Source: a virus. Taken from it: a stretch of DNA of 64,000 nt. The number at the start of each line of letters is the position of its first letter. The first letter of the stretch is position 1. The position numbers were made by a program, and so were the translations under genes. The DNA is taken from IMG/VR virus record IMGVR_UViG_3300008012_000023, positions 28,982 through 92,981 of that record; one strand, written 5' to 3'. The notes under the pieces were generated by a model. The model was not told the DNA's origin. It saw nothing but the letters and a program-made list of their open reading frames with translations, and made no database searches. Shown here piece by piece: positions 28,331 to 42,112 of this stretch.

Positions 28331-29229
28331 TAAATGAATCCTATTTGTTCTATGTTGTTTCCAGAATCTTTACCTGTAAGTTTTCCATTTGCGAACTCCT
28401 GCAGACTGAATCCTTTTACTGCTTCCCTGCTGTAGATAGGTTGTATCTGCACTGTGAAGATGCTAGAAGTTGGTGCCCAGGTTTCTGGAATCCTTGTAGA
28501 AGTAGACGAATACGATCCTTCACTTGCTTCGGGTAGATCTGCGCCTTGCGAGGTGCAGATATAATCAACGTTGTTTGTCATTTCAACCGTGAAGTTAGTG
28601 ACCACCACTGGTATATTTTTGAACACGTGTTGACCGTAACCGTTTAACAACAATATAGGCGGTGGACTTCCTTTGAAATTTTCTTCTCCTCCAAAAAACA
28701 TTTTTGTTACTGTTCTTAGAAAGTGCAGTGTTGCTACCCAATGCTGGGCATCGTCTTGATTTTGTACTGGAAACTCTCCAACTATTGTCATGTTGCTGGT
28801 TTCTGAATTTTGGTATGCGTAAAAAGGATAATTGTTGTGGACCATCGCCATTGGATTGTAAGCGGCCTGGTGCTGTATAATCACGTTTGGCGTCAATGGA
28901 AAAATAATTCCTCCAGTATCTGATAATCTAGAAAGTATGCTGTATTTGGTGCCACCGGTTGTCTTGTCCTGTTTCTGTCCGTCTCCAAACATTACCTGTC
29001 GCAGATATGTGTTCGCTGTAGGAACTGTAAGTCTTACACGCCAGTCTGTCTGAAAATCTCTTCGGGTCCATGACGCATCCGCTCTCTGCCTCAAAGGCGA
29101 TTCTGCGCCTTGCTGTAATCCGGCACCCAGTAACCTGCCCAATGTTCTGTTGAAAACATTCGAGGCTACACCGCCTATCACATTGGCTAGTGATTTACCA
29201 TCTGGGTTTGTCAAATTTGATTCACTCAT
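28330..29229 (-). CDS. Putative tail tube initiator/baseplate protein (gp48/gp54-like)
   Basis: GIIFPLTP...LHFLRTVTKMFFG...GSPPPILLLNGYGQHVFKNIPVVVTNF. Start moved to ATG 29229 (MSESN), downstream of the late promoter. Confidence 0.6.
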   Translation of the reverse strand: MSESNLTNPDGKSLANVIGGVASNVFNRTLGRLLGAGLQQGAESPLRQRADASWTRRDFQTDWRVRLTVPTANTYLRQVMFGDGQKQDKTTGGTKYSILSRLSDTGGIIFPLTPNVIIQHQAAYNPMAMVHNNYPFYAYQNSETSNMTIVGEFPVQNQDDAQHWVATLHFLRTVTKMFFGGEENFKGSPPPILLLNGYGQHVFKNIPVVVTNFTVEMTNNVDYICTSQGADLPEASEGSYSSTSTRIPETWAPTSSIFTVQIQPIYSREAVKGFSLQEFANGKLTGKDSGNNIEQIGFI

Positions 29230-36215: not shown

Positions 36216-36672
36216 ACCAATTCCGGTAGTAGGGACCTGACTCCAGCATCTTCGAGAACCTGTTGAGTTTGCTCAATCTCTGTGCCAGGAACAGTGTGTA
36301 ATGACCGTTGTTCAATTTCACACCCTTCACCGATTCCTCCACGTCGGGATGATCCTCGAGGACAACAATGTCTTTGTCCATGAAATGGTTGTTCAACTGT
36401 TCGGCCAACTGCTGGGTCTGTGCGGCCGTGAACCAGGCAGGTTCCGCTATCAAGACCAAAACATCTTTCTCGTCAAAATCGCAATCCAAGATGTGTTGAC
36501 ACAGTTGTTCGTAGTTGTCCGTGTCGTTCAACTCGACGAATTTCACTTTTCGATCCACCATGGCCTTCTGGGCAAACGGACAGGGAGGTAGATTGCCAAA
36601 CACCGGATTGGGTTTGGTCACAAAATTATTGATCCAGTGCTGTATCTTCTGTGTTGGTGTCGTCGATGTCAT
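36169..36672 (-). CDS. DUF1415-like protein
   Basis: HWINNFV...NLPPCPFAQKA, DHP, LAQRLSKL...YY.NW. Confidence 0.6.
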   Translation of the reverse strand: MTSTTPTQKIQHWINNFVTKPNPVFGNLPPCPFAQKAMVDRKVKFVELNDTDNYEQLCQHILDCDFDEKDVLVLIAEPAWFTAAQTQQLAEQLNNHFMDKDIVVLEDHPDVEESVKGVKLNNGHYTLFLAQRLSKLNRFSKMLESGPYYRNWSKTYLESVKGWRSRK

Positions 36673-36922
36673 CTTCCTGATTTACTCTTTCCTTGATCGA
36701 TTCAAGTTTTTGTAATTTTTCTTTCAGGACTGATGCTTGTTCTTGTGCCTCCACCATTTTTTTGGCACAGGCCTTGGTCTCTGTGTTGGCCTGGTCCAGT
36801 TTCACGAGCAACTGCTTGATACGAGATTCTTTGTTCGCAATGGCAGTGTTTAGGGACTGCTTCTCGTCGGTGAGGTCCTTGATGTGGTAACGGAGTTCCT
36901 GTACTAGATCTCGGTCTGACAT
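36626..36922 (-). CDS. Coiled-coil hypothetical protein
   Basis: 98 aa with a heptad pattern throughout; TAATTA 6 nt upstream. Confidence 0.7.
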   Translation of the reverse strand: MSDRDLVQELRYHIKDLTDEKQSLNTAIANKESRIKQLLVKLDQANTETKACAKKMVEAQEQASVLKEKLQKLESIKERVNQEDDIDDTNTEDTALDQ

Positions 36923-36970: not shown

Positions 36971-37198
36971 CTAGAAGAAAGGTTGACCGGTTTTTTTGGC
37001 TGTTTCCAGATTGTCTTTTATTATGTCCGCACACATTTTGCGTTCTTCGTTGCTCATGTTGAGTGCTTCTTGGTAAGTGACGCCACCCCTCATATACCAG
37101 CATATACGCAGTATCTCGTGTTTGAGATTTTTTCCTTCGTTTTCGAGATCTTTGAGGTAAGTGACAATTTCAGAATCCGACAGTGATAGAAGTTTTAT
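36971..37198 (-). CDS. gp51-like hub/tail assembly chaperone segment, probably expressed by -1 frameshift from the gp26-like gene
   Basis: Open frame IKLLSLSDSEIVTYLKDLENEGKNLKHEILRICWYMRGGVTYQEALNMSNEERKMCADIIKDNLETAKKTGQPFF*. No upstream ATG or SD; lies in the -1 frame of 37195-38052. Confidence 0.75.
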   Translation of the reverse strand: MKLLSLSDSEIVTYLKDLENEGKNLKHEILRICWYMRGGVTYQEALNMSNEERKMCADIIKDNLETAKKTGQPFF

Positions 37199-38052
37199 CC
37201 GAAAAAATTTGAGTTATCGAAAGTTACGGGTACCTCGTATGTTGCAGGAGCACCTTTTTTGATCTGCTCTTCGTTGGCCTTGACAGTGAGAGGCTTGAGG
37301 TTTCCCTGGGTTCTCAGTTCTCCCAGTCCCTCCTGTATGTCATTTGTTATCTTGACATCGGCATTGTTGATGAATTCCCTGATCTGTTCCTTGTCCGTGA
37401 CGGCAGTTCCGTCCGGGGTGGTGATACTGACTATGCTGGATACCAACACATCAAAGTTTAACTCACTCAACTTTCTAAAACTCTCGGCAAATGTCTTGCT
37501 CTTCTGCGTTTCGTCCATTTGTGTCTGCGACACAGTGGCATAGATCTTCTGTTGCTCGAACGTTGCCAATTGATTTTTTGTCAACTCCTTGTAGGTAAGC
37601 GGAGACACCTTGACCTTGAATCCCGACTTGGTGGAAAATTCGTCCTTGATATCTATGTTCTTCAATGTTTCAAGCATCTGTGGTAGATTGACCGTGTGTA
37701 CCTGCATCTCGTTTGCCTTGGGCACGGGTGCCTCGATATCCATGGTCTCACCAAAAGTGGCTATCCTTATGGCCAGCAATATGGTGTCCAGGTCGTGATT
37801 CACTACCTGCCAGGCATCCTTGATGTTGGGCATACAACTCTGTATCACGTCCACCGTGCTCTGCCCGTTAAGGAGTGCGTCCGGTGTCTTGAAATTGAGT
37901 TCATCTTTGGCTGTCATTGGAAGCACAGGCAGTTCGCCTGTCTCTGTTTTTTCAAATCCCTTGTCGTCAAAATACTTGCCCTGTGACGGCAATGTGATGT
38001 ACACAGCCGGCTGTCTGTAATATTTGCTTAATGGTTTTGTGTTTTCTGTCAT
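37195..38052 (-). CDS. Baseplate hub assembly chaperone, T4 gp26-like
   Basis: YITLPSQGKYF...LPMTAKDE...DLDTILLAIRIATFGE; ends ...SNFFG. Confidence 0.85.
   Translation of the reverse strand: MTENTKPLSKYYRQPAVYITLPSQGKYFDDKGFEKTETGELPVLPMTAKDELNFKTPDALLNGQSTVDVIQSCMPNIKDAWQVVNHDLDTILLAIRIATFGETMDIEAPVPKANEMQVHTVNLPQMLETLKNIDIKDEFSTKSGFKVKVSPLTYKELTKNQLATFEQQKIYATVSQTQMDETQKSKTFAESFRKLSELNFDVLVSSIVSITTPDGTAVTDKEQIREFINNADVKITNDIQEGLGELRTQGNLKPLTVKANEEQIKKGAPATYEVPVTFDNSNFFG
37201..37210 (-). other. Tandem -1 slippery heptamers (A AAT TTT and T TTT TTC)
   Basis: Minus-strand sequence TCA AAT TTT TTC GGA TAA holds two in-frame X XXY YYZ motifs just before the stop. Confidence 0.7.
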
Positions 38053-38062
38053 AATTTTTGTC

Positions 38063-38105
38063 TATAAATATACACTAAAAGTATCAGTGTGTCTATATAT
38101 TTATA
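38063..38105. promoter_or_regulatory. Two face-to-face late promoters (TATAAATA + 38063-70; TATAAATA - 38098-105)
   Basis: Exact motifs on both strands between the divergent gp26-like and tape-measure genes. Confidence 0.75.
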
Positions 38106-38135
38106 TAGGCGCAGATAATGGATTTTTAAAACCGT

Positions 38136-40334
38136 ATGGCCATAGATCGAGAAGACGCAAAAATAATAGCAGATGAGTTTGCCAAGGCACTCAGGATACC
38201 CACTTCCGGCATCTCGGCCAGGAATCTGCTCGACAGGGCTCCCGAACAGTTCAAGGAAGAACTAAAAAAACAGATCAGGTCACTCCAGGACCTAGCCAAA
38301 CAGCACGGCGCCACTGAACAGCAGTTGATAAAATTCAGGCTCCAGGCGGAGGAAGCAACCGAAGGGCTTACAAGAAATGCAAGGGCCTATAGAATTGTGT
38401 CCCGAGTGCTGGACACAACAGAGAAAGCGATCAGAGGTTTTGCGGATTCTGGCAGGAAAGGTGCCGACACCTTCAGCACTTTTACCAAAGCATTCGAGGG
38501 AATGCCTCTATTGGGTAACTTCAATGACCTGGCCAACAGTTTTGATTTCAACATTGGCATATTCCGAGCCCTTTCCAGCCAAGGAGCCGATTTTGGACAA
38601 AGTCTAATACGGCTTAGACAGGCCGCGGCAGATGCCAGATTGCCTCTATTGGAATTCGTTGACCTCACATCTTCGAACGCAGTCACTCTTGCCGCATTGT
38701 TTGGAACAGTCAACCAAGGCATACCATCGTTGACGAGGTTTACAGAACAACTGAGAACGCAAGGCATACCACAGTTGGCCGCTCTGGGTTTGACCACAGA
38801 AAACCTAAACGAATTTTTAACAACCTATCTCGACATACAAAGAGTTCAACAGAGATTCCAACGACTTTCCGATCAAGAGATAACGGCAAACACTATATCA
38901 TATGCCAAGGAACTGGACAGACTGACAAGATTGACCGGTATTCAGAGAGAACGGTTAGACGAAGAAATAAAAAGACAGAACGCAGATGCCATATTTCAAA
39001 CATATCTACAAGGTCTGGATGAAAAACAGGCCATGGCCAGCCAACAATTAGTGGCAACAGTGAGCCAACTTAATCCGGCACTGGGCACCAGCCTGAAAAA
39101 CTTCCTGGCAACAGGTGTACAGTTTGACGAGTTGTCGCAACAGGCATCGGCATTGGTGCCAGGATTCAGTGATGCGGTGTTGGCATTCCGATCGGGACAG
39201 ATAGGAATCGACCAGGTGCTGACAACCCTGAGAGATGGGGCTAGAAATTTCAGATCACAATTCAATGAACCTGCGGTATTGTTGGGCGGAGGACTAGAAA
39301 ATTTAGCCAATGCCTTCTTGCCATTAAGCACATTGACCTTGGACACAGCCAAGGCATCCGAAGAACAACTGCTGGCACAAGAAAGTTTGACAAAAAATTT
39401 AGCAGAATTTAATGAATCCGCGAAGAGATTGAAAGCAGGGTTCGAAACGATACAAACATCGATCCTGATAGGACTGGGTCCACTTGTCAGTGGACTGGTC
39501 GGAGGAACCAACGAGGGATTCATCATGATAGGCAACGCCCTGGCAAACTTCAGCAAGGACTTTCCGGGAGTTGTGGCCGGGGGATTCGTGGGAGCGTTGG
39601 CAGGCAAATATCTTTTTGACAAAGCGGCCCAGATACTGATCATAGCCACAGGTGTAAGGATAGGACAAACCAGCCTCACAAGTTTCATGAAAGGCATCAC
39701 CGGCACATTCATGAGAACAACAGGCACCATGCTGGGACTGTTTACGAGGATAGCAGGTCCGCTGGCATCGATTGTTACGATCTTGAGCAGTCTTTCAATG
39801 ATCTTTAACGAGGAGACAAGAGCAAGAGGTGTTGGAGGAGTAGCAGGAGGAGTGGCCGGTTACCTGGGAGGCAGGATGGCGGCCAGAGCAATTGGTGCCG
39901 CGATTGGCGGAACCGTGGGTACATTTATCGGTGGACCTATAGGCACAGCGTTAGGTACTGCCCTTGGTACTGTGATAGGTACCATAATTGGCCAGATGAT
40001 GGGAGGTTCGTTTGACAGCAGATTGACAGGTACCGACGGTGAAACAGGCAGATTGCTTGAAACCAAAGACACTCTGACAAAAGTTCACAGAGGCGAAATG
40101 GTACTGCCGGCCAAGACCGCCAAAAAAGTGGCAGATGCTATCCAGGAAGAAGCAGTTACAAGTGTTGTGGATCAGGATATGATCAAAAACAATAAGTACC
40201 TTGAAGAATTAATAACAACAAATAAAAAAGTGGAGAGATATCTATCAACAGTGGCGGCGGCAACAGTCAAAACAGCAGATAACACTGGTAAAACAATCAG
40301 TAACATCAAAGCATTGGGAGGAATAATCCAATAA
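38136..40334 (+). CDS. Tail tape measure protein
   Basis: 732 aa, helical and Ala/Leu/Gln-rich, with C-terminal Gly-zipper hydrophobic helices and H.GEMVLP; adjacent to the chaperone gene. Confidence 0.75.
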   Translation: MAIDREDAKIIADEFAKALRIPTSGISARNLLDRAPEQFKEELKKQIRSLQDLAKQHGATEQQLIKFRLQAEEATEGLTRNARAYRIVSRVLDTTEKAIRGFADSGRKGADTFSTFTKAFEGMPLLGNFNDLANSFDFNIGIFRALSSQGADFGQSLIRLRQAAADARLPLLEFVDLTSSNAVTLAALFGTVNQGIPSLTRFTEQLRTQGIPQLAALGLTTENLNEFLTTYLDIQRVQQRFQRLSDQEITANTISYAKELDRLTRLTGIQRERLDEEIKRQNADAIFQTYLQGLDEKQAMASQQLVATVSQLNPALGTSLKNFLATGVQFDELSQQASALVPGFSDAVLAFRSGQIGIDQVLTTLRDGARNFRSQFNEPAVLLGGGLENLANAFLPLSTLTLDTAKASEEQLLAQESLTKNLAEFNESAKRLKAGFETIQTSILIGLGPLVSGLVGGTNEGFIMIGNALANFSKDFPGVVAGGFVGALAGKYLFDKAAQILIIATGVRIGQTSLTSFMKGITGTFMRTTGTMLGLFTRIAGPLASIVTILSSLSMIFNEETRARGVGGVAGGVAGYLGGRMAARAIGAAIGGTVGTFIGGPIGTALGTALGTVIGTIIGQMMGGSFDSRLTGTDGETGRLLETKDTLTKVHRGEMVLPAKTAKKVADAIQEEAVTSVVDQDMIKNNKYLEELITTNKKVERYLSTVAAATVKTADNTGKTISNIKALGGIIQ

Positions 40335-40375: not shown

Positions 40376-42112
40376 ATGGCTTGGAAAAAATATTTTAAAG
40401 ATGCTAATATGTCGCCCATAGCAGGTGACAGAAATCCCCAGTTCGCTAAAAGAAACTACAGTTCCTATCTACCGGACGTGTACACAGGACACCCTAACAG
40501 AATACAGAGGTATTTCCAGTACGACCAAATGGACACTGACTCAGAAGTAAATGCCGCTCTTGATATTTTGGCAGAATTCTGCACACAAACCAATCAAGAA
40601 AACGAAACACCATTTGACATCGTTTTCAAAGATGATGTTGTTGAATCGGAAGTCAAACTGTTGAAGAAAGCGTTACAGCAATGGACAAAAACAAATCACT
40701 TTCAGAAAAGAGCATTTAGAATTTTTAGAAATGTTTTGAAATACGGAGACTGTTTCTTTGTCAGAGATCCGGAAACAAACAAGTGGTTGTACATCGATGC
40801 CGCCAAGGTAGACAGAATTATTGTAAATGAATCAGACGGCAAAAAACCGGAACAATATATTGTAAGAGACATAAATCCAAACCTCGAAAGATTGAGTGCC
40901 ACACAGGTTACACCAAACCAGGTGTATGGTGGTACAGGCACAACATCCGGTCCTTATCACGCAAACTATTCGTCGGCTGGATACGGATACAACATCAATT
41001 CGGGTGCCGGCGCCGCCGGCGGACAAGGTGGAAGATTCTATCGTACCATGAATCAGTATGCGATCAACGCCGAACACGTGGTTCACATGAGTATGTCAGA
41101 TGGTCTAGACAACTTGTTTCCGTTTGGACAATCCATACTAGAACAGATTTTCAAAGTTTACAAACAAAAAGAATTATTGGAAGATGCCATAATCATCTAC
41201 AGGGTACAGAGAGCGCCAGAAAGAAGAGTGTTTTATATTGATGTGGGTAATATGCCAACACACTTGGCAATGCAATTCGTCGAGAGAGTGAAAAACGAAA
41301 TCAACCAAAGAAGAATTCCTTCAACATCGGGTGGTGTAAACTACGTGGACGCCACATATAACCCAATGAGTATCAACGAGGATTACTTCTTTCCACAAAC
41401 AGCAGAAGGTAGAGGATCTAAAGTTGACACACTGCCAGGCGGTACTAATCTAGGTGAGATTGATGACTTAAAATTTTTTACAAACAAACTTTTCAGAGGT
41501 TTAAGGATTCCGAGTTCTTACCTGCCCACTGGACCAGACGATTCGCAACAATCATTCAATGATGGAAGAGTAGGAACAGCATACATCCAAGAATTGAGAT
41601 TTAACAAATATTGCCAAAGATTACAGTCAATGGTAGCACCCATATTTGACGAAGAGTTTAAATTATGGATCAAAGCAAAAGGTTACACATTGGATAACTC
41701 TATGTTTGAAATCAAAATGAATCCGCCACAAAACTTCGCACAATACAGGCAGACAGAAATGGACCAGGCCAGAGTCCAGACATTCACTCAAGTGGCAGAA
41801 CTGCCATATATGAGTAAAAGATTTGCTCTAAAACGTTTCTTGGGATTATCTGAAGAGGAAATGGCAAGAAATGCGGAACTATGGGCACAAGAAAACAATG
41901 TGGCACAGAAACAACAGACAAAATCAACACAGATGAGATCGGCAGGAGTGAGTCAGTCGAACATTTCATCCGATCTAGATCAATTTGAAGAGCCTACAGC
42001 AGACGCCGAGGCACCCGAACCAGGTGGACCGGGAGCAACCCCCGGAGCGGCAGGACCGACCGGTAACACAGGCACACCAGGAACAACCCCCGGTGGCGGA
42101 GGCACAACGTAA
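40376..42112 (+). CDS. Portal protein, T4 gp20-like
   Basis: LLEDAIIIYRVQRAPERRVFYIDVGNMP, EDYFFP..EGRGSKVDTLPGG.NLGEIDDLKFF, ELRFNKYCQRLQ. Confidence 0.95.
   Translation: MAWKKYFKDANMSPIAGDRNPQFAKRNYSSYLPDVYTGHPNRIQRYFQYDQMDTDSEVNAALDILAEFCTQTNQENETPFDIVFKDDVVESEVKLLKKALQQWTKTNHFQKRAFRIFRNVLKYGDCFFVRDPETNKWLYIDAAKVDRIIVNESDGKKPEQYIVRDINPNLERLSATQVTPNQVYGGTGTTSGPYHANYSSAGYGYNINSGAGAAGGQGGRFYRTMNQYAINAEHVVHMSMSDGLDNLFPFGQSILEQIFKVYKQKELLEDAIIIYRVQRAPERRVFYIDVGNMPTHLAMQFVERVKNEINQRRIPSTSGGVNYVDATYNPMSINEDYFFPQTAEGRGSKVDTLPGGTNLGEIDDLKFFTNKLFRGLRIPSSYLPTGPDDSQQSFNDGRVGTAYIQELRFNKYCQRLQSMVAPIFDEEFKLWIKAKGYTLDNSMFEIKMNPPQNFAQYRQTEMDQARVQTFTQVAELPYMSKRFALKRFLGLSEEEMARNAELWAQENNVAQKQQTKSTQMRSAGVSQSNISSDLDQFEEPTADAEAPEPGGPGATPGAAGPTGNTGTPGTTPGGGGTT

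Follow-up and report, generated by a model that had tools for sequence, protein, structure and literature searches.

A conserved slippery heptamer and a probable -1 frameshift in gp26/gp51-family genes of giant phages and cyanophages

Frameshifting in tail-chaperone genes is a textbook example of recoding. The tail assembly chaperones of long-tailed phages are produced by -1 frameshifting (Levin 1993; Xu, Hendrix and Duda 2004, 2013, 2014, cited in PMC5009743); T4 is singled out as the exception in a review of 2016 (PMC5009743). In T4, gp26 and gp51 are listed as assembly chaperones of the baseplate hub; gp51 is needed for assembly yet absent from particles, and older genetic studies placed gp26 in the hub (PMC3004832). 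Here we analyzed a gene of the gp26/gp51 family located in a 64,000-nucleotide (nt) stretch of viral DNA (positions 28,982 to 92,981 of the IMG/VR record IMGVR_UViG_3300008012_000023; hereafter, the window), which very probably undergoes a programmed -1 frameshift at the slippery heptamer T_TTT_TTC close to its 3' end. A preliminary description of this DNA had proposed a -1 frameshift at two overlapping slippery heptamers that would join a gp26-like and a gp51-like reading frame, next to the tape measure gene of a T4-like phage, and had compared the products with the G/GT chaperone pair of phage lambda.

The resemblance to lambda gpG/gpGT lies in a -1 slip close to the gene's 3' end, a position beside a tape-measure gene, and a short and a C-terminally extended form of one protein. 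However, the protein family and fold are unrelated as far as they were compared, the heptamer is U_UUU_UUC instead of G_GGA_AAG, the gene of the window is divergent from the tape-measure gene, and its extension appears to pack onto the body of the protein. Phage P2 reportedly makes its tail chaperone forms E and E+E' by frameshifting at a slippery T_TTT_TTG, a description credited to Christie et al. in 2002; it is said to share with the window a contractile tail, a near-identical U-rich heptamer, and short and long products, although these belong to a different protein family.

The slippery site and the -1 frame

The 285-amino acid (aa) open reading frame (ORF) ends in ...TCA AAT TTT TTC GGA TAA, and the C-terminal end of its product reads ..NFFG (Table 1). 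In the -1 frame, the DNA of the window reads FFRIKLLSLSDSEIV...WYMRGGVTYQEALNMSNEERK...GQPFF, with FFRIKLL at the start and WYMRGG in the middle. The predicted products are thus 285 aa and 360 aa long (282 + 78 residues for the latter), and the predicted tryptic peptide that spans the junction and ends in the Arg of the -1 frame is GAPATYEVPVTFDNSNFFR. The first and only ATG of the -1 frame is the Met codon within WYMRGG; counting from FF, it is codon 40 of 78, and 39 codons of the conserved block precede it. Upstream, the -1 frame is open for just 3 codons (L-K-F, 10 nt) 5' of the TTC codon, and neither ATG, GTG nor TTG is present there. The gene end, the -1 frame down to GQPFF, the 2 product sizes and the lack of an ATG before the middle of the gp51-like motif had all been read in this way in the preliminary description, and all are found on the minus strand of the window. 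The heptamer as such is not enriched in the window, with 30 copies of T_TTT_TTC vs 27.7 expected by chance; what makes this copy significant is not the heptamer alone but where it lies, in which phase, and that 123 distinct relatives conserve it.

Table 1. Features of the locus, in coordinates of the window.
Feature	Position	Strand	Evidence or remark
0-frame gene, gp26/gp51 family, short product of 285 aa	37195..38052	minus	PF12322 T4_baseplate 37.3 bits (cut-off 24.5); phrog_150 'baseplate hub' 4.6e-13
0-frame stop, TAA	37197-37195	minus
Slippery heptamer T_TTT_TTC, 0-frame codons TTT + TTC	37201..37207	minus	Conserved in relatives
-1 frame extension, CGG ATA AAA ... TAG, 76 codons after FF	36971..37201	minus	Conserved peptide, entropy, profile matches
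-1 frame stop	36973-36971	minus
Predicted trans-frame product, 360 aa	join 38052..37201 + 37201..36971	minus
Overlapping heptamer A_AAT_TTT	37204..37210	minus	In about half of relatives; probably incidental
Tape-measure-like gene, 732 aa, divergent, presumed client	38136..40334	plus	phrog_167, phrog_794, phrog_973 (tape measure), phrog_1047, glycine-zipper Pfam
Shared control region, 83 nt, between the frameshifted gene and the tape-measure-like gene	38053-38135
T4-type portal gene (gp20), context marker only	40376..42112	plus	PF07230 1.9e-113

Taken as a whole, the locus is in all likelihood best explained by a slip that gives a pair of 285 and 360 aa, presumably the short and the long form of a hub/tape-measure assembly chaperone. 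Most ribosomes would end at the TAA codon and release the 285-aa gp26-like protein. A fraction would slip by -1 on U_UUU_UUC, with one tRNA-Phe at UUU in the P site and a second at UUC in the A site, re-pair with UUU UUU, and go on with CGG (Arg), adding 76 residues to reach 360 aa; in the model of a fused relative, this part forms 3 helices. The 2 products would have 284 residues in common, and their ratio would be set by the frequency of the slip.

To assess conservation we collected relatives in IMG/VR. Two scans gave about 90 further giant-phage-type loci; another, for which gp26 of the cyanophage S-PM2 served as the seed, gave 80 loci of the cyanophage type. After removal of duplicates, 123 distinct junctions remained (65 of the giant-phage and 58 of the cyanophage type), with 36-100% protein identity. 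T_TTT_TTC occurs in the same phase in 122 of these 123, and the remaining one has T_TTT_TTA. Both heptamers initially proposed are present in the window; T_TTT_TTC alone is conserved, and A_AAT_TTT was rejected as the slip site because it occurs in just about half of the relatives. Whether it encodes N, S, D, A or T, the codon that precedes the heptamer invariably has T in its last position. The distance from the heptamer to the 0-frame stop varies (1 or 4 codons), and homology in the -1 frame always begins at F-F-R. The preliminary description had pointed to a variable phase or a conserved independent start as signs that would speak against it; the phase proved invariant, and no ATG, GTG or TTG precedes the heptamer in the -1 frame of 120 of the 123 relatives. 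In 19 of the 123, a stop codon stands immediately before TTT TTT.

The site was also found in the complete genomes of the cultured phages RaK2, PA5oct, CBB, Atu_ph07 and S-PM2. In the nearest cultured relatives, the homologue of the extension lies immediately 3' of the gp26-like gene in the -1 phase; the 0 frame of Atu_ph07, PA5oct, RaK2 and CBB has xxT TTT TTC near its stop, and the -1 frame runs on for 65-75 codons. The S-PM2 gene ends in TCT TTT TTC GCA TAA, and all 80 related cyanophage-type loci from IMG/VR carry the S-PM2-type site. Two individual junctions are worth recording. L093, which has T_TTT_TTA, retains the invariant Arg as AGA. L079 has 5 T's at the junction (AAATTTTTCC), which places the extension in the +1 frame and may reflect a sequencing error or a different recoding event.

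The 78-aa extension, counted from FF, aligns without gaps in 62 relatives, with F1, F2, R3, L7, W37, R40, G41 and N66 invariant. Across the 62 sequences of the giant-phage type whose extension is 78 aa long, the codon-position entropies of the -1 frame were 1.08/0.69/1.59, with the third position the most variable, a pattern that indicates that this frame is translated. A profile of 26 extension peptides gave 446 matches among 1.84 billion representative proteins, most of them miscalled fragments of 40-98 aa, and scans of the extension against Pfam and PHROG found no family except phrog_18291, which was matched for RaK2's own miscalled ORF. It had been foreseen that annotation would miss or truncate the second part, and public records bear this out: the -1 part is not annotated in RaK2 and PA5oct, it appears as a 40-aa stub in Atu_ph07 and as the 58-aa CBB_249 in CBB, and in S-PM2 the 57-aa protein annotated as 'gp51' corresponds to the 3' portion of the -1 extension. 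Hundreds of records would need correction: 'gp51' of cyanophages and the short hypothetical ORFs annotated in giant phages would be pieces of a longer protein. Two longer proteins with the extension, P0002 and P0003, were discarded as probably chimeric short ENA contigs; in them, a phage -1 extension is joined to bacterial fragments resembling the DNA polymerase III beta clamp and peptidase M20.

Such gene calls raise the alternative that 2 separate proteins are made, with the -1 frame translated alone as a small 'gp51' by internal initiation or by termination and reinitiation. The many database entries of 40-98 aa, the annotation of S-PM2 'gp51' and CBB_249 in this sense, and the conserved Met in WxMRGG fit this possibility. 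However, initiation at this Met would leave untranslated the 39 conserved residues before it, including the invariant F-F-R and L7; upstream starts are lacking in 120 of the 123 relatives, and the 19 stops directly before the heptamer close the frame there. Moreover, the joining residue is the same in the natural in-frame fusions, and the predicted fold includes the extension as an integral element (see below). Two separately translated proteins are hence a very improbable explanation. Since the window comes from a metagenome-assembled contig and has a homopolymer run at the junction, another conceivable origin of the 2 frames would be a recently broken gene or a sequencing error. The comparative data already refute this and leave artefact or decay a negligible chance: the same arrangement recurs across many samples, in 123 distinct sequences, as well as in 5 finished genomes of cultured phages, and the -1 frame is under purifying selection.

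In-frame fusions, predicted fold and downstream RNA

In at least 20 clusters of proteins of 319-351 aa, a gp26-like body is continued in the same frame by the extension, which makes up the very C-terminal end. In a joint alignment, the 0-frame end of the window protein (..VPVTFDNSNFF) and the start of its -1 frame (FFRIKLL..) meet where the fusions read ..LDxxxxFRxKLI... The DNA of in-frame fusions was inspected for the lineage L053-L055, in which the junction is CAA TTT AGA, without a T run, and the fusions are therefore not homopolymer sequencing errors. What these natural fusions show is limited to the functionality of the fused protein. Comparison thus establishes, at the level of sequence, the site and its phase, that the -1 frame is coding, and that the fused protein is real.

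In a quick maximum-likelihood tree of 85 full-length sequences, one branch split the 20 fusions from the 65 slip-type genes (Shimodaira-Hasegawa-like approximate likelihood ratio test, SH-aLRT, 96). One change of state between slip and fusion suffices to explain this tree, which, coming from a quick search and a midpoint root, is only indicative. The locus L054 (2989-5017) has 2 tandem genes of the family, with a short, cysteine-free paralogue directly 5' of the fused long one. The short paralogue ends in ..FMGSNFL, where by homology the slip site would lie, and L054 is a second, T4-independent instance of a two-gene solution. Four cysteines (CxxC...CxxC, likely a zinc ribbon) are invariant in the in-frame fusions; the window protein and many relatives do not have them, and they are retained in the slip-type relatives L045 and L048 and in T4 gp26/gp51.

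AlphaFold2 predicted a fused homologue (P0044) as a single compact fold including the extension, which consists of 3 main helices (predicted local distance difference test, pLDDT, 96.7; predicted template modelling score, pTM, 0.92). The short product of the window was predicted with the same topology (pLDDT 92.8, pTM 0.87), its last 6 or so residues, from which the extension would run on, being uncertain. Searches with Foldseek against the PDB returned nothing at E <= 0.001, and VIA-align found generic helical hairpins only (Z <= 8.1). Against BFVD, Foldseek matched the fused homologue to models named 'baseplate hub' or 'hub assembly chaperone' from many myoviruses.

Downstream of the heptamer, most relatives have an RNA stem of 10-16 bp that starts 5-7 nt 3' of the heptamer. 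Compensatory double changes were found at 5 of 10 consensus pairs in the subgroup that contains Atu_ph07 and at 2 of 10 in the other subgroup. Subgroups differ in the distance of the 3' arm of the stem, which is about 40 nt downstream in some and about 60 nt in others (L010-L050, L001; about 5-80 nt 3' of the heptamer). These differences, and the lack of the stem in the window and L006, suggest repeated remodelling or loss of the stimulator.

The stem and the run also bear on transcriptional slippage, in which RNA polymerase would add an extra U in the U6 run and the same protein products would result. There is a homopolymer run at the junction, and one added U yields precisely ...N F F R...; the C that invariably follows the run is accounted for by the invariant Arg codon and is thus not specific for a ribosomal slip. 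However, the run is just 6 long in all 123 relatives and is never lengthened, though longer runs slip better, and slippage of bacterial RNA polymerase usually needs runs of about 8-9. Besides, the co-varying stem of most relatives has the spacing of 5-7 nt that is typical of ribosomal -1 stimulators. We infer that the slip is ribosomal and much favour this over slippage of RNA polymerase, which we regard as improbable.

Some observations temper the case for a ribosomal frameshift in the window. Support for it is wholly comparative, and neither the window nor L006, which is its nearest relative, shows a significant downstream stem (duplex z > 0; fold z -0.67). Stimulatory RNA structures 5-9 nt downstream of such sites are frequent but not indispensable. 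A slip in the window would rest on the heptamer alone, and its efficiency may be low or depend on other signals. The lambda G/GT slip is likewise said to depend on the heptamer alone.

Relation to T4 gp26 and gp51

Full-length matches to PF12322 and phrog_150 were obtained for both T4 gp26 (208 aa) and gp51 (249 aa), and BLASTP aligns the two proteins with each other (2e-6); by these matches they are judged to be paralogues. In T4, gene 26 is followed by gene 25 and gene 51 is divergent, so that no slip from 26 into 51 is possible. The gp51 protein has about 50 extra C-terminal residues, and this tail (about residues 199-247) matches the S-PM2 -1 extension (BLASTP 5e-5; 24 bits with a hidden Markov model of the cyanophage extension). 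The S-PM2 extension aligns to residues 200-246 of gp51, from the junction residue on (F-K-L-L in gp51 vs F-R-I-x in S-PM2), and phrog_150 matches S-PM2 gp26 and continues, at profile positions 227-281, in the -1 frame. The match of its tail to the S-PM2 extension therefore makes gp51 an in-frame long form and gp26 a short form. Hence, of the earlier equation of gp26/gp51 with lambda G and T, the short and long pair stands, but gp51 is a full-length paralogue with a C-terminal tail and corresponds to 'GT' rather than to 'T'. Complete genomes with the slip (Atu_ph07, PA5oct and RaK2) have a single gene of the family where T4 has 2, and it is well supported that one slipped gene equals T4 gp26 plus gp51.

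The extension of the window itself is more distant from gp51. Its BLASTP match to gp51 falls at residues 39-64 (E 6e-4), and hhalign assigned 4.7% probability (3-5% overall). In a comparison of the window-type extension profile with the S-PM2 extension, only FFR aligned, and a search with the gp51 tail in a word-indexed protein database found just 3 close T4 relatives. Weak matches of the extension to cyanophage-extension profiles (P 0.016 and 0.012) had the same register both times, pairing ..Y-x-E-A-x-x-L-S-x-x-E-R.. with ..Y-S-L-x-E-I-x-N-M-x-P-x-E-R... Homology of the 78-aa extension to the gp51/cyanophage tail is likely rather than demonstrated.

T4 gp26 and gp51 thus resemble the window products in family, in being a short and a long form with a common body, and in having a gene close to that of the tape measure (gene 29). 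They differ in being encoded by 2 divergent paralogous genes without a frameshift, whereas the window has one gene and a -1 slip; in addition, the window protein has lost the CxxC...CxxC cysteines, and its extension is 78 aa long (with an extra long helix) vs about 50 aa. S-PM2 shares with the window the heptamer, its phase and the protein family; unlike in the window, its extension of 61-68 aa is of the T4 gp51-tail type, and the tape-measure-like gene is the next gene on the same strand. T4 also makes gp26' (95 aa; L004 7803-8090) by internal initiation within gene 26, which brings the T4 products of this family to 3.

On this comparison there would be 3 natural routes to a short and a long form, all answering a single problem of stoichiometry: a slip, a fusion accompanied by a short paralogue, and 2 diverged genes. 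It would explain why T4 has 2 paralogous hub 'catalyst' genes, the roles of which have been unclear since the 1970s, and raises the question of whether gp51 is the 'GT' of T4 and gp26 its 'G'.

Chaperone role and genomic context

If the frameshift takes place, the pair would act as the short and long forms of an assembly chaperone of the baseplate hub and tape measure, with 26 (short) and 51 (long) as the T4 equivalents. By the logic of lambda gpG/gpGT, the common body would handle the tape-measure/hub complex and the rarer form would carry an extra C-terminal module. Synteny and T4 genetics tip the balance slightly towards this mechanism.

The tape-measure-like gene is the divergent neighbour of the gp26-like gene in the window, RaK2, PA5oct and CBB, in agreement with the position beside a tape measure gene given in the preliminary description. 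In S-PM2, a tail-tube-like gene, gp26, the -1 extension and the tape-measure-like gene follow each other on one strand, which is the canonical lambda order of tube, chaperone, extension and tape measure. In GenBank, gp26, gp51 and gp28 of Acinetobacter phage Berthold are named 'tape measure protein assembly chaperone'.

A different reading accepts the frameshift but takes the products as structural components of the hub, or gives them another role in assembly, instead of a lambda G/GT-like pair. It agrees with the older placement of T4 gp26 in the hub (PMC3004832) and with the GenBank label 'structural protein' of CBB_250, the gp26-like protein of CBB. However, CBB_250 is absent from the virion mass spectrometry (MS) table of CBB, in which the tape-measure-like CBB_251 is present with 29 peptides, and in PA5oct the gp26-like gp336 has no virion MS note whereas its neighbour gp335 does. 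The absence of the required T4 gp51 from particles (PMC3004832) and the canonical gene order of S-PM2 also speak against a structural role, which is possible but rather unlikely. Returning to the lambda-like chaperone pair, several results are unfavourable to it as well. No Pfam or PHROG chaperone family was matched, and neither sequence nor fold comparison gave a link to lambda-type tail assembly chaperones; in the model, the extension packs onto the body and is not a free domain like lambda T, and both findings would suit a structural or other role; and in Atu_ph07 the tape-measure gene lies about 15 genes from the gp26-like gene. What resembles the proposed lambda G/GT type is the logic and the synteny; no resemblance in fold or sequence was found.

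A frameshift of the tail-chaperone style would thus be used in the T4 superfamily, in an unrelated protein family, although T4 is the stated exception (PMC5009743). A broader proposal, on which we find the evidence evenly poised, is that throughout the T4 superfamily the true tape-measure chaperone comes from the gp26/gp51 family, that the U_UUU_UUC slip is its old and general mode, and that T4 and its close kin, and separately the L054 lineage, replaced the slip by a duplication in which one copy has the extension in frame. If this were true, the exception in the rule 'all long-tailed phages except T4' would not be a real one, and a short and a long chaperone would be needed universally, even though the proteins are unrelated to lambda G/GT. 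No report of the slip came up in a literature search that took in the papers describing the PA5oct, CBB and Atu_ph07 genomes; subscription literature lay largely outside this search, and a prior description is possible.

The source record is a 93-kb IMG/VR fragment with a CheckV completeness of 26%, which for a record of this length implies a giant phage. Markers of the T4 superfamily surround the locus in the window: a gp5-like hub protein, a late sigma factor, gp46/47-like nucleases, a prohead protease and the major capsid protein. The nearest cultured relatives in tblastn, at about 30% identity, are the giant myoviruses Atu_ph07, Phosso, PA5oct and the RaK2/121Q/CBB group, and blastn of the locus against cultured phages gave no match. 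Within the T4 superfamily, the phage belongs with the giant RaK2/PA5oct-like members; it is 'T4-like', as first described, in this wider sense but not as a close relative of T4.

In the window, the portal gene follows the tape-measure-like gene, and there is no tube gene beside the frameshifted gene. On the same strand as the extension, 48 nt after its stop, lies an ORF of 98 aa (36626-36922, minus strand) that is coiled-coil-like and matches no family. In the shared control region (38053-38135), a sigma-70 scan found just a weak match on the minus strand. The plus strand of this region contains TATAAATA, which resembles a T4 late promoter and faces the tape-measure-like gene.

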